From contig CAXXGO010000006.1 in assembly GCA_963666835.2 (NCBI GenBank), positions 768,001 through 832,000 on the forward strand: a DNA stretch of 64,000 nucleotides, written 5' to 3'. Within the stretch, counting starts at the first letter, position 1; each line of letters begins with the position of its first letter. The position numbers were made by a program, and so were the translations under genes. This DNA comes from Phycisphaerae bacterium. Its GTDB lineage: Bacteria; Planctomycetota; Phycisphaerae; UBA1845. The notes beneath the pieces were generated by a model. It did not search any database. It saw only the letters and a program-made list of their open reading frames with translations, and was not told where the DNA came from. Below, in pieces: positions 4,227 through 63,120 of the stretch.

Positions 4227-4576
4227 TGTACCGCCGCCCGCCGGCAGATCACAGGGTTTGCACCGTAGACGTCCCGGCGCTTCGTTAGCGTCCACCCGGT
4301 ACCCCCGCGCGGGCGTCTCGTCCATTCCGGCGTCTGCCCGCCAGGAACAGCCGTGCCGACTCCCCGCCGGAATGGATGGGAGACGGGCGCTAAAAACACG
4401 AGATTTTCCTGCTAATGCGCGTAAAGTCCCGGCCGTCTTCCCCATTAGAAGGCTATGGGAACGTGGCGTTTGCGAAGACCGGCCTCTAGGGGTGAATTAT
4501 TTAGACTAAGGGGAGACCTGTGTCCTTATTATGCAACTCTTCAGAGCGTTCGGCCGGCTTCTTGGCGGAGCGATAT

Positions 4577-7505: not shown

Positions 7506-8333
7506 TGGTGCCCTATCTATGCCGGCGTTTAGGCGGGTGCCCCATGCCGGCGCGGATGCCCTATCCATGCCGGCGTTCAGCGTGCTTAAACAGCCGCATT
7601 GCCCCGCCGCCGGCATGGGTGGGGGACGGATCGCGTAGGGCACGGTCGAGGCACGAGACCTGCCGAGAGGGCGTGCGTCACGCGGGCGTGCGGTAAGCCG
7701 TCCCGTTAGGAACGCAGGCAAGTAGCCACGGGTGGAGCGCAGCGGAACCCGTGGGGGGATTCGCTCTCCACATCCTCTCGTCCCGAAGGGCCGGCGGAAG
7801 GCCTCGCAAGCCGCGCGAGGCCGTCGGTCACCCGTATGCCACGGTCGGGGTGCGAGACGTGTCGTACCCTTTTCATGGCACGCGCCATTGCGGCAGGTCT
7901 CGTACCTCGACCATGCCCTACAAGTCTTTGCGCGACGTGCGTTTTCCGAACTTACGCCGAAGGCGTTTCACAACAAAGACCAGGGTAAACGACGCGGCGC
8001 AGCCGCGTCAGTGCCACCCTGCGTCACATCGCCCCCTTTCCACACCAACCCCGAAGTGGGTTGAACAACGGCGCAACCCCGTCGGGGTTGATCTTCGATG
8101 TGATCATGATCCCAGGGTATCCGCTGCGCGGCAACCCTGGGCTGTAGGGCGTAACGCCTTCGGCGTACTTCGGTACGCCGGAGTATTCTCGCGCCGTGGC
8201 GAGTACCCATCCATGCCGGCGCGGATGCCCTATCCATGCCGGCGTTCAGCGTGCTTAAACAGCCGCATCGCCCCGCCGCCGGCATGGGTGGGGGACGGAT
8301 CGCGTAGGGCACGGTCGAGGCACGAGACCTGCC
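7506..8333. repeat. Intergenic mosaic of REP/MITE-like elements (families A, B and others)
   Basis: Family B copies at 7554-7626 and 8223-8295, each followed by family A (7635-7664, 8304-8333). Inverted A copy at 7890-7921. The 7698-7800 element is related to 62098-62196. Confidence 0.85.
7953..8167. mobile_element. MITE/REPIN-like element with 15-bp terminal inverted repeats
   Basis: TACGCCGAAGGCGTT (7953-7967) and AACGCCTTCGGCGTA (8153-8167). Internal hairpins AACCCC..GGGTT and CCCAGGGT..ACCCTGGG. No credible ORF. Confidence 0.7.
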
Positions 8334-14690: not shown

Positions 14691-14823
14691 GTAGGGCACG
14701 GTCGAGGCACGAGACCTGCCACAACAACGCGTGTCGCGCGAAGACCTGCGGGTGCCCCGTACCATGCCGGCGTTTGGCGGGCTGGAATGGCCGCATCGCC
14801 CCACTGCCGGCATGGGTGGGGGA
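14691..14823 (+). repeat. REP family A (14691-14720) plus family B (14750-14823) between convergent genes
   Basis: Direct sequence match to the other copies. Confidence 0.85.
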
Positions 14824-32167: not shown

Positions 32168-32531
32168 AGTGGGTGGCCCACGTCCTTTTGTATTTGGCGT
32201 ATGCGGCGAACCGCGGCGGGTCAATCAGCACCGTCCCGGCTGGACGTGGGGGAGCCAATGATCAGCGGGAGCACATGTGGTCCGCACAGCAGACCCTGCC
32301 TACTCGACGTTGCTTCACAGGGTTCAGAGACTATCATCGGAGGTTCGCGGTAGCGGGTGTGCCACTGCTCTTGAGCAGTGCAGGAACGGAAGCCGTTCGC
32401 GTAGCGCGGCATCTTGCCTGCAGAATGCGCACAACGCCAGGAATCGCGGCAGGTCTCGTTCCTCGACCGTGCCCTACGAGAATATAGGATTGAGAGACTA
32501 TCCCCGACGCGGGTGCCCCATACATCCCGGC

Positions 32532-34509
32532 GTGCGTTGGGCTGGATTAGTCGCGCCGACTACCCGCCGGGATGGGTGGGGGGAAAGCGCCGGTAAGCCG
32601 GTGAGGAGTAGTGGATGAGAGAGCCATACGGTGAAGGAATAGCGAACCACACCGACCCCGAGTCATACTGTGGTGTCCGCAAGGGCATGGCGGGAGCGTT
32701 GACAGGGGCACGTGCGGGCCGGCCATTGAGCCGTGAAAGCCTTTTACTCCGGAGTGCCGACGCCGTCCCCCAAGGCGGAAGGCAACACCGGAGGGCGTCG
32801 TTAACGCGAGACGCCTTTCGGACTCCGCGCGGTCTTAGAACCCGAGCACGCACGGAAACTCCTCACGCGGAACCCGGGAGATCCCGCGTTCGGCCTCGAA
32901 CATGGCATCGAGGTCCGCAGTGTGAATCCATAGGAGCACGACACTGATGCACGGGCGCGGGAAGTCGGACAGGCCCATAGTACCGAAGAAGACTGCGAAC
33001 AACGGTGATCCCCCGGCGGGGAGGTCGTCCGCGGAGCAGTTGGAGGAAAGGGGCCTGGCCAAGGGCAACTCGATTCGACACGACAGGCACCGTACGCAGA
33101 GCCGGGATCGTCTGCAAAGCGGGTTGGATCGGGTACGACAGGCAGCGGTAAAGGATAAGGATTTACAGTTCACCACGCTTTGGCACCACGTCTATGATGT
33201 CGCTCGCCTCCGGGAGGCGTACTTGAGCCTCAAGCATGCTTCGGCACCGGGGATGGACGGCATGACATGGGAGGCGTACGGCAGGGACCTAGAAGAACAC
33301 CTCTTGGATCTGTCGGCACGTCTACAGCGCGGAGCGTACCGAGCGAGGCCGGTCAAGCGGGTCTACATTCCGAAACCCGATGGACGGCAGAGACCAATAG
33401 GGATTCCCGTGTTGGAAGACAAGATCGTCCAACGGGCGATGACCGATGTGCTCTCGGCTGTCTACGAGGCAGACTTCCTCGGGTTCTCCTACGGATTTCG
33501 ACCAGGACGGGACGCCCATCAGGCGTTAAGTGCCCTGACTGTCGGCATCGAGAGGAAGAAGGTGAATTGGGTGCTGGATGCAGACATTCGTGGATTCTTC
33601 GATGCCATAGACCACGATTGGCTGATCAAGTTCGTCGAGCACCGGATCGCAGACCAGCGTGTCGTGCGTCACGTGAAGAAGTGGCTGAACGCCGGCGTGC
33701 TGGAGGACGGGTGTCGAAGGGACACGGAGACGGGGACGCCGCAGGGGGGCAGTATCAGCCCGCTATTGGCGAACATCTATCTCCATTACGCCTTCGACTT
33801 GTGGGCCCGCCAATGGCGACGGACGCAAGCTCACGGAGATGTGATTATCGTGAGATATGCGGACGACTTCGTGGTGGGATTTCAACAGCGAGAGGATGCC
33901 GAGCGGTTTCGGGATGAGCTGACGGATCGCCTCCGGAAGTTCAAGCTGGAGCTACATGCGGACAAGACTCGTCTGATTGAGTTCGGCCGTTTTGCGTCGA
34001 CCAATCGCAAGCGAGAAGGCCGCGGCAAACCGGCGACCTTCGAGTTTCTGGGTTTTCGCCACATCTGTGGCAAGACCCGGCGTGGGAGGTTCACGGTACT
34101 ACGGCAGACTGTCGCGAAACGACGGCGTGCGAAGCTCAAAGCGATTAAGCAAGAGCTTCGGCGACGTATGCATGCCCCCGTCCGAGAGGTGGGCGCGTAT
34201 TTGCGGGCGGTGGTTCGCGGGTACTATCAGTATTATGCGGTACCGCGGAACTACCCGGCCTTAACGGCATTTCGGGATGAGGTTGTCCGTCTTTGGCGCT
34301 GGACGCTCCGGCGTCGCAGCGAGAAGACTCGGATTACCTGGGCCCGCATGAACCGTTTGGCCAAGCAGTGGATACCTGCTCCCAAAATCCTACATCCTTA
34401 CCCCGACCGACACCTGGCCGTTATGACCCAAGGCAGGAGCCCAGTGCGGTAGTCCCGCACGCTGGGATCTGTGGAGGGGGTCCCGGGTAACCGGGATTCC
34501 TACTCCGAC
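32532..34509 (+). mobile_element. Group II intron (IIB-like, probably bacterial class E/F type; 5' boundary either GTGCG 32532 or GTGCC 32513)
   Basis: Domain I-like motifs (GAAGG..TAGCGA, CCCCGAGTCAT...GCGTTGACAGGGG). Domain V GAGCCCAGTGCGGTAGTCCCGCACGCTGGGATC (34437-34469). Domain VI with bulged A ending CCGAC at 34509. Confidence 0.9.
32947..34452 (+). CDS. ltrA: Group II intron reverse transcriptase/maturase without endonuclease domain
   Basis: APGMDG, RVYIPK.DG.QRPIGIP, SYGFRPGR, LDADI.GFFD, GTPQGG, RYADD and FEFLGF motifs, then domain X (GYYQYYAVP). No HNH domain. Confidence 0.96.
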   Translation: MHGRGKSDRPIVPKKTANNGDPPAGRSSAEQLEERGLAKGNSIRHDRHRTQSRDRLQSGLDRVRQAAVKDKDLQFTTLWHHVYDVARLREAYLSLKHASAPGMDGMTWEAYGRDLEEHLLDLSARLQRGAYRARPVKRVYIPKPDGRQRPIGIPVLEDKIVQRAMTDVLSAVYEADFLGFSYGFRPGRDAHQALSALTVGIERKKVNWVLDADIRGFFDAIDHDWLIKFVEHRIADQRVVRHVKKWLNAGVLEDGCRRDTETGTPQGGSISPLLANIYLHYAFDLWARQWRRTQAHGDVIIVRYADDFVVGFQQREDAERFRDELTDRLRKFKLELHADKTRLIEFGRFASTNRKREGRGKPATFEFLGFRHICGKTRRGRFTVLRQTVAKRRRAKLKAIKQELRRRMHAPVREVGAYLRAVVRGYYQYYAVPRNYPALTAFRDEVVRLWRWTLRRRSEKTRITWARMNRLAKQWIPAPKILHPYPDRHLAVMTQGRSPVR

Positions 34510-34625
34510 ACGGATGAGTATCCGAGTCGAGTTTACATAGCGCAATCGATTCCCCACCCTTCGCCCGGTGCATAATGCGGATGCCGTGCTTTTGTCCCGG
34601 TACAATGCTCTTCGTCTACTGCGGT

Positions 34626-36221
34626 CTAATCCAAGGCGAAGGACGGGGCACCCTCCGCGGGGGTTGCAGGCGCCGGCTCCTCGACCATTGCCATGATCGA
34701 CCCGTCGTCAAGGCAGTCAAGCGCGACCTCCGTTACATCCGGATCGAACTGCCGGCCGGCACTGTTGTGCAGCTCCGATCGAACGCGCGCGGTGTCGTAG
34801 GCCGGTTTGTAGCTTCGGGACGAGAACATCGCGTCGATCGCATCGGCCAGAGCCAACACCCGCGCTCCGATGGGGATTCGATCGCCGCCGAGCCCGTACG
34901 GGTATCCGTTGCCGTCGTAACGCTCGTGATGGTGCAGGATCAAAGGCCGCTCGTCGGCTAAGAACGACACGTGGCCGAGGATATCAAGAGCCGTTTCCGG
35001 ATGCCGCTTGATCACGTCGAACTCTTCGTCGGTCAATCGGCTCGGTTTGGTGAGGATGGCGTCGGGCACCCCGATCTTACCGATGTCGTGCAGGAGGGCG
35101 GCCGCGCGGATCGAGCCGATTACGTGGTTACGCAGTTTCATTCGCCGGCTGATGGTCTCGGCGTAGCCGGCTACCGTCATACAGTGGGTGCGGGTGAACG
35201 GGTCCTTAGCTTCGACGGCGGCCGCCAAAGCCCGCGTGGACTCCAGATATGTGGAGCGCAGTTGCTGCCGCACTCGCTGTCTCCATTGGGTGACATCGCG
35301 AACGGATACGCGAGTGAGATCGCGGTGCAGGGCGTGTTCCCCGACTATCTCGTGCCAGGACACGATCCGATTACCTCCTTGGTGCTTGGCGTGATCGAGA
35401 GCGATGCGGGCATGGCGGATGAGCTGCTGTTCCGACTCAATGAACCCGCTGGTACTCTCGGCTACGCCGATACTGACCGTGATTTCGTGGCTCTCCCCGT
35501 CGTACACCACCGGATTGCGGCGCATCTGTCCGCGGCACCGGCGGGCCAAACGCAACGCCTGCTCCGCCGGTGAGCCGGGTAGGGCGACGATGAAACGATC
35601 CGAGCCGTACGGTGCCACAATGTCGGAGCGGCGGCACACGTTCCCCAGGGTCATCGCAAACCACTCCAGGACCCGGTTACCGAAGGTCGGACAGTAGCGG
35701 TCGTTGCAATCGCGAAACCGATCAAGGTCCAACATCATTACCGTGAGCGGCTCGCCCTGCCGGCGACAACGTCCGCGAAACGCCGCCAGGCTCTCGAGAA
35801 AAGTCCCGTGCCGCAAATCGGGGGCGGCGGCCGCGCCCGTCCGGAACAGCGGCGTACGCCGGGCGTCATCGATTACCCGGAGAAACTCGTCCGCGCCGAA
35901 CGATTCTTCGAGGCAATCCCAAGCCCCGGCCCGGAACGCCGCGCGCGTCGAGGCGGCGTCGCCGCTGGGAACCAGGGCAATCACTCTAATGTCGGAAGCT
36001 CCCCGCCGCAGGGTGGATAACGTACGGTCGATGGACGAGTCCTTGCCCGCCTCGATCGGGATCACCGCCGCCGCAACCGTATCGCCTTCGACGCGGCCTT
36101 CGAGGCTTTCGAAGTCGGACACCGCGACCCCGCGCACGCCATGCCGGGCCAGCAGATTCGCCAGGCGACACCGCGTATCGGCGTTGTGATGCAGGATCAG
36201 AATCGTGTTGTTCTTTTCCAC
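34626..36221 (-). CDS. Pseudo-REC + degenerate GGDEF + HD-GYP c-di-GMP phosphodiesterase
   Basis: REC-like N-terminus lacking the acidic residues. MLDLDRFR...RRSDIVAPYGSDRF. HDIGK and HHHERYDGNGYP motifs. Confidence 0.9.
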   Translation of the reverse strand: MEKNNTILILHHNADTRCRLANLLARHGVRGVAVSDFESLEGRVEGDTVAAAVIPIEAGKDSSIDRTLSTLRRGASDIRVIALVPSGDAASTRAAFRAGAWDCLEESFGADEFLRVIDDARRTPLFRTGAAAAPDLRHGTFLESLAAFRGRCRRQGEPLTVMMLDLDRFRDCNDRYCPTFGNRVLEWFAMTLGNVCRRSDIVAPYGSDRFIVALPGSPAEQALRLARRCRGQMRRNPVVYDGESHEITVSIGVAESTSGFIESEQQLIRHARIALDHAKHQGGNRIVSWHEIVGEHALHRDLTRVSVRDVTQWRQRVRQQLRSTYLESTRALAAAVEAKDPFTRTHCMTVAGYAETISRRMKLRNHVIGSIRAAALLHDIGKIGVPDAILTKPSRLTDEEFDVIKRHPETALDILGHVSFLADERPLILHHHERYDGNGYPYGLGGDRIPIGARVLALADAIDAMFSSRSYKPAYDTARVRSELHNSAGRQFDPDVTEVALDCLDDGSIMAMVEEPAPATPAEGAPSFALD

Positions 36222-62248: not shown

Positions 62249-62420
62249 GCGGCAGGTCTCGTACCTCGACCGTGCCCTACGAAACCTCCACGCATTGCGT
62301 GCCTTCGTGGCAGGACCGTGCCCACATAACTTCAGAATGCGAATCCGTCCCCCACCCATGCCGGCGGCGGGGCGATGCGGCTATTCCAGCACGCCAAACG
62401 CCGGCATGGATGGGGCACCC
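62249..62420 (-). repeat. REP A (62249-62280) and family B (62348-62420); duplicated at 62990-63021 and 63030-63102
   Basis: Direct sequence match to the other copies. Confidence 0.85.
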
Positions 62421-62939: not shown

Positions 62940-63120
62940 TGCCAGATCCTCAGAATGCATGCTTAATCCTCTGCGTGACGCGCGCTTTCGCGGCAGGTCT
63001 CGTACCTCGACCGTGCCCTACGCAATCCGTCCCCCACCCATGCCGGCGGCCGGGCGATACGACGATTCCAGCGCACCAAACGCCGGCATGAATGGGGCAC
63101 CCCGCCGGGACATATTCTTG

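Follow-up and report, generated by a model that had tools for sequence, protein, structure and literature searches.

The 64,000-nt stretch of DNA analysed here (the window) carries a class E-like group II intron that is intact, has been active recently and, as far as its sequence allows one to judge, very probably retrohomes into a pre-existing family of RAYT-type REP elements (family B). The sequence itself shows the intron boundaries, the fixed insertion point, the complementarity of EBS1 and IBS1, 12 near-identical copies in the genome and a strand bias; for splicing and retrohoming, the near-identical copies are indirect evidence. The repeat preceding the intron is regarded as its landing site and not as a part of it, because insertion takes place at a fixed position, GGGTGGGGG|A, and the intron remains invariant while the repeats vary.

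Features of the intron

32583..34509, + strand: full-length group II intron, class E-like, 1927 nt; 5' end GAAAGCG, 3' end CTCCGAC
32618..32842, + strand: domain I core (Rfam RF02005, 169.4 bits, cut-off 49)
32767..32772, + strand: EBS1 CCCCCA, in the loop 32765-32773; covaries with the exon in homologues
32577..32582, + strand: IBS1 TGGGGG, the complement of EBS1 and, in 12/12 copies, the six bases that end the exon
32947..34452, + strand: RT/maturase ORF of 501 aa, counted from its first ATG (TIGR04416, 370.6 bits, cut-off 300)
34435..34509, + strand: domains V-VI, with a 5-nt DV loop and a bulged A at 34502 (RF00029 and fold)
34510..34515, + strand: start of the 3' exon, ACGGAT, the tail of the interrupted repeat

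The element displays the features by which group II introns are recognized, namely domain I, domains V and VI with the bulged A, a 3'-terminal AY (...GAC), an RT/maturase ORF within domain IV and an EBS1-IBS1 pairing. The RF00029 match to domains V-VI (36.9 bits, E 4.6e-5) lies below the gathering score of 40. The YADD motif of the RT/maturase is intact, and the true start of the ORF may be later than the first ATG. A Pfam search of the intron ORF matched RVT_1 alone and found no endonuclease (En) domain; a promoter scan upstream of the intron found nothing. The intron-encoded protein (IEP) is 58% identical to the frameshifted RT on pRmeGR4b, which we take for S.me.I4, the disrupted class E intron mentioned in PMC5894124; its identity to RmInt1-type class D, F/g3, g1 and g2 references is 33-37%. 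This class assignment is based on a single class E reference (references drawn from PMC5894124 and from Table S2 of PMC3552965). The intron thus resembles class E in having its IEP nearest to that class, in lacking an En domain and in its 5-nt DV loop, a loop shared by classes E and F (PMC3753933). A class C (IIC) assignment was ruled out by the 6-nt EBS1, the IEP closest to class E and the lack of a terminator-like call at the junction.

The 5' end departs from the GUGYG consensus: the intron starts with GAAAGCG and has AAGCG in the GUGYG position. The initial annotation had named a GTGCG inside the repeat as candidate 5' splice site, which proved untenable, as GTGYG occurs within the upstream 75 nt in only 2/12 copies, at differing offsets. 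Nor does CACGCGGA near 32865 pair with the repeat to close domain I, as had been proposed; its partner is CCGGTGAGGAG, which belongs to the intron: when 32583-33060 is folded (z -4.3), this sequence and the CACGCGG-containing segment close domain I.

A dispersed palindromic repeat family

32511..32582, + strand: REP-like hairpin, family B long form, serving as 5' exon and homing target; IBS1 lies in its right stem arm
32532..32536, + strand: GTGCG in the variable repeat loop, a chance match
34552..34653, - strand: partner inverted hairpin, read from the sequence; same layout at other intron copies and in locus L196 (see below)
4311..4385, + strand: degenerate empty family B copy, absent from the initial annotation
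7554..7625, + strand: empty family B copy
8223..8294, + strand: empty family B copy
14751..14822, + strand: empty family B copy
62349..62420, - strand: empty family B copy
63031..63102, - strand: empty family B copy

The reported ungapped identity of 54/70 between 32511-32580 and the reverse complement of 62351-62420 was reproduced, and the similarity is real: shuffled controls reached at most 35/70 in 10,000 shuffles (the best window-wide match of 200 shuffled queries was 39). The copies listed previously are present as well (7554, 8223 and 14751 on the + strand, 63033 on the - strand), and one more was found at about 4311. An HMM built from 15 copies yielded 77 matches in the 6.0-Mb genome, 70 of them near full length, and the intron directly follows 10 of these 70.

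Family B members have a stem of about 17 bp and a loop of about 30 nt, with DNA fold z-scores of -2.3 to -3.9. The compensatory stem change noted previously is real and general across the family: 47 of the 55 scored copies are complementary at the two variable positions (TT/AA 24, TG/CA 10, TC/GA 9, CT/AG 2, CC/GG 2), the remaining 8 being non-complementary. Family B is therefore a multicopy palindrome with a maintained stem, as expected of REP/REPIN elements. Its identification with families 1-4 of the CGTC-tagged REPs was ruled out, since these are described as having an 8-9 bp stem and a 4-5 nt loop, with no transposase found (PMC3733652).

Read together with the partner hairpin, the sequence indicates that the intron at this locus splits a REPIN-like doublet. 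All 12 filled sites in the genome fall between ORFs, as crudely called and for filled sites only. Another repeat, the GTAG-type family A, lies just upstream (32446-32477); it is very abundant, with hundreds of blast matches genome-wide.

Junctions and genomic copies

The 12 full copies of the intron measure 1927-1928 nt and are 99.8-100% identical, differing from the window copy by 0-3 substitutions and, in one case, by 1 nt in length. Their common sequence begins at GAAAGCGCCGG; upstream of it, each copy is preceded by a different family member ending in GGGTGGGGG, of the long form at 10 copies and of the CCTTCGCC/GGCGAAGG form at 2. At the other end, each full copy terminates in CTCCGAC, followed by the A and the repeat tail, so that in 12/12 cases the order is GGGTGGGGG, intron, base A of the repeat. 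The bases after this A are CGGA in 9 copies, CTGA in 2 and TGGA in 1; the same order is found in empty repeats, which read GGGTGGGGG and then ACGGA. The repeat loop differs among filled copies and the intron is invariant from 32583 onwards. Moreover, empty tandem paralogues of two filled sites are 104/110 and 105/110 identical across the junction. From the common and variable boundaries, the empty repeats and the empty paralogues, the intron is delimited to 32583-34509, the repeat being exon. The repeat was said to run straight into domain I; it does so only as a result of the insertion of the intron at 32582/32583. A 5'-truncated intron next to an ordinary REP, which would have refuted the initial annotation, is not what is seen either, as the element is full length, has a start matched by homologues and occupies the same repeat base in 12/12 copies.

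In contigs from 4/22 sequencing runs, 32582 was nowhere joined to 34510, so that an empty allele of precisely this locus was not seen; one joint between 32582 and 34460, interrupted by undefined letters, was ambiguous and was left out of the evidence. The intron contig in X1 starts exactly at 32583, with a depth of 62.8 versus 5-6.5 on the flanks, which is consistent with many copies and gives no copy number.

Several other intron-derived sequences were observed. The copy at C1:23317-25244 is the one that deviates by 1 nt in length; since the alignment of its RT is split into two parts, it is probably frameshifted. An older, 5'-truncated copy (C7:69129-69536) is 95% identical and adjoins no family B repeat. 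At C7:94469-94516, an empty family B doublet ends in a fused 48-nt piece of intron domains V/VI, the joint showing short microhomology; either template switching by the RT to repeat RNA or an ordinary deletion could have given rise to this fusion. More distant group II intron/RT remnants lie at C6:259364, C6:1065660, C6:1809121 and C1:352856.

Target recognition

The EBS1 sequence CCCCCA is the complement of the last six exon bases, TGGGGG. Homologous introns begin at the equivalent place with GTGCG, GAGCG, GCGCG or GAAAGCG. When EBS1 was scored against the exon in 46 rows (12/58 having been dropped beforehand as duplicates or unalignable), a unique best match at the canonical five-base start was obtained in 16, and the other GAAAGCG introns scored (6/6) gave a unique 6/6 match two bases further upstream; the two-base 5' extension therefore belongs to the intron. 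In this scoring, the window intron itself ties at offsets 2 and 4 owing to its G run, and the offset of 4 for locus L030 is a register error. The EBS2-IBS2 pairing looks weak (about 4/6 by eye).

EBS1 alone does not account for the choice of sites. The genome holds 900 sites of the TGGGGG|A type. Of those that combine the nine-base core with a strong hairpin, 11/48 are filled, versus 1/852 of the others, and this lone site also belongs to family B, having scored slightly below the threshold. A match of six or seven bases is too short to account for 12 repeat sites out of 900, so selection beyond EBS1 is needed. The extra specificity could come from flanking repeat sequence read by the protein together with a weak EBS2, or from the hairpin; we regard sequence as the somewhat more probable source. 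Among the stem types, GCATGGG was filled in 0/11 cases versus 11/55 for the others, a difference that is not significant (p 0.19).

A refinement of the target reading would have the intron recognize the hairpin structure itself, as class C introns do with terminators or attC, and insert at the mismatch at the stem foot. This would agree with the 12 copies here and the 6 in genome G438 (see below), all located at the stem foot despite very different loops and two arm types, and with the position of the cut, at the G left unpaired at the foot of the predicted stem; EBS2 is, in addition, dispensable for class E/F intron splicing in vitro (PMC3753933). However, sequence and structure are inseparable here, as almost every site that has the extended sequence also forms a hairpin. 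The homologues closest in RT are not associated with such a repeat, and two distinct metagenome introns (3/30 matches) have the TGGGGG|GAAAGCG junction with no family B hairpin. On balance, recognition of structure is possible but unlikely. Somewhat more doubtful still is the fuller version, in which a class E lineage would recognize a hairpin in DNA, gain access to IBS1 by opening the stem and insert at its foot, with the 5' site moved two bases upstream and both the branch A and mobility kept. Whether sequence or structure is read, IBS1 is predicted to be paired within the long stem, and such burial should hinder both splicing and reverse splicing, a difficulty common to the two versions.

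Strand bias

On contig C6, filled sites number 10 on the + strand and 0 on the - strand, against 13 and 18 for empty ones (Fisher p 0.002; p 0.0006 under a looser definition). Fork-coupled retrohoming has been described for RmInt1 (PMC1802570), and by analogy the bias fits such a process and might reflect use of the lagging strand; however, replication polarity is flat over C6 0-1 Mb by GC skew, fourfold-site skew and hexamer polarity, where 8/10 of the C6 copies lie. Two dnaA-like genes were seen, at C6:228812 and C3:138441.

Repeats and introns in related genomes

A 14-base core of the repeat occurs in 22/301 genomes of the class, with 45, 63 and 26 exact matches in G015, G239 and G287, respectively. 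In G015, G124 and G287 there was no match to TIGR04416, and in G239 there were only fragments under the cut-off, these being draft genomes in which absence is unproven. Judged by this distribution and by the HMM search of introns (see below), the repeat is independent of the intron. As in REP/REPIN-RAYT systems, family B consists of dispersed hairpin doublets with CGTC at the stem foot (reverse strand) and flanks a RAYT in G239, where short-form doublets lie on both sides of the gene (locus L196; NF047646, 91.7 bits, cut-off 80). This was the case at 1/30 Y1 loci in five relatives, and for the short form only; in the genome under study, no RAYT flanked by family B was found (0/9 Y1 loci, 0/4 homologue loci). 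A third palindromic repeat, upstream of the intron at about 32357-32383 of the window, also flanks a Y1 transposase gene at C6:345.7 kb (L089/L219), the product of which is 43% identical to the G239 RAYT.

The association between intron and hairpin recurs in G438, which belongs to another genus of the same family. Its sister intron is 90-97% identical at the ends, with 6/6 5' junctions at the same base of long-form hairpins and 3/3 3' junctions starting with A. Introns with nearer RTs, 60-70% identical, have other targets, and REP homing is thus a local trait of this branch. An order-wide junction scan, allowing one mismatch, matched 32/279 genomes; among 9 matched regions examined, the 6 from G438 were intron junctions and 3 (G017, G466, G467) were not. 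In a metagenome scan, 27/30 matches were not introns, and the window intron itself was found in none.

GAAAGCG introns fall in several places on the RT tree (a quick tree of 44 rows, from which L140 was left out for want of an RT). Class E-like introns with extended 5' ends were seen at L104, L094, L031, L109, L099, L027, L047, L061 and L013. The extended ends comprise GAAAGCG, also GAACAGC and possibly GTAGCG, are backed by EBS1 covariation and are scattered on the RT tree. One Bryobacterales chromosome (OZ242276.1) carries seven related intron RT loci (L062-L069), each matching residues 4-275 only.

Origin of the association

Two readings other than homing have to be weighed. According to the initial annotation, family B would be a ribozyme-derived MITE amplified from an exon-intron junction, or else a REP co-opted as the 5' end and target of the intron. 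The adjacency itself speaks for a shared origin, as does the domain V/VI piece of 48 nt joined to a repeat doublet on C7. Yet the repeat contains no intron sequence and abounds in relatives with no full group II RT match, which leaves amplification from a junction unsupported; it flanks a RAYT in G239, domain I closes within the intron, and the loops vary among filled copies. Searched with the family B HMM, neither the body of the intron (best E 0.23) nor any of 80 loci of homologous introns gave a match. We thus consider both the MITE origin and the role as a 5' end extremely improbable; of the co-option proposal, the part concerning the target holds and the part concerning the 5' end does not. 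Alternatively, repeat and intron could have moved together as a composite unit, by DNA transposition or recombination, and a repeat is indeed found upstream of every copy. However, the repeats around the 12 copies are mutually diverged, in contrast to introns that are 99.8-100% identical, and empty tandem paralogues exist. This divergence contrast refutes joint movement, to which we attach almost no probability. Retrohoming into a pre-existing repeat is hence the reading retained below.

Comparison with known systems

A 2015 review gives homing sites, terminators and attC as the targets of bacterial group II introns (PMC4424553). RmInt1, of class D, homes into the multicopy ISRm2011-2 (PMC1802570, PMC5894124) and resembles the present intron in being En-minus, in using one fixed site in a multicopy element, in its approximately 10 copies per genome and in strand-biased insertion; here, however, the target is a 70-nt non-coding palindrome instead of an IS, the IEP is 37% identical and the 5' end is not GUGYG. 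Class C introns insert after terminators or in attC (PMC4424553), and the present intron similarly inserts at the 3' foot of dispersed intergenic hairpins; unlike them, it has a class E-like IEP and RNA, a 6-nt EBS1, no U tract and an IBS1 inside the stem. Class E introns include S.me.I4, Cl.be.I2 and others (PMC3753933). The present intron shares with this class the IEP similarity to the pRmeGR4b intron, the DV loop and the missing En domain, and differs in starting with GAAAGCG and in targeting a REP; upstream hairpins have been speculated on for class E fragments (PMC7923331).

A 5' splice site upstream of GUGYG is known from fungal IIB1 rRNA introns and C.te.I1 (PMC4424553), with which the present intron shares a recurrent upstream shift of the site. 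In the shifted fungal IIB1 introns, described as mostly LAGLIDADG-encoding, EBS2 and the branch motif are lost (PMC4424553), whereas the present intron, which spread recently, has retained both an intact RT and the bulged A (34502). We found no paper on the GAAAGCG 5' end, which may already be catalogued, most subscription papers being outside the coverage of the search.

REP targeting is known for the IS elements IS1397, ISKpn1, IS621, ISPa11 and ISPpu9/10 (PMC1525189), which, unlike this intron, use DNA transposases; here it is done by a group II intron. The sole group II intron row in the table of PMC1525189 gives 2/9 in P. putida. In the literature searched, coverage of which excluded most subscription papers, we found no publication in which a group II intron homes into REPs.

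Proposed mechanism and implications

In the most likely course of events, in which we have high confidence, the intron would be spliced from read-through transcripts and form an RNP, which would reverse splice into TGGGGG|A on exposed single-stranded DNA, cDNA synthesis then being primed by a host primer. This raises the questions of how the intron reads an IBS1 hidden in a stem, and of how mobility is compatible with a 5' end extended by two bases. Given the empty paralogues within the genome and the recurrence in another genus, the intron constitutes a clean case of REP targeting by a group II intron. The repeat family would offer it some 70-90 putatively intergenic landing sites, and the case illustrates how a dozen copies of an intron can accumulate with genes left intact.
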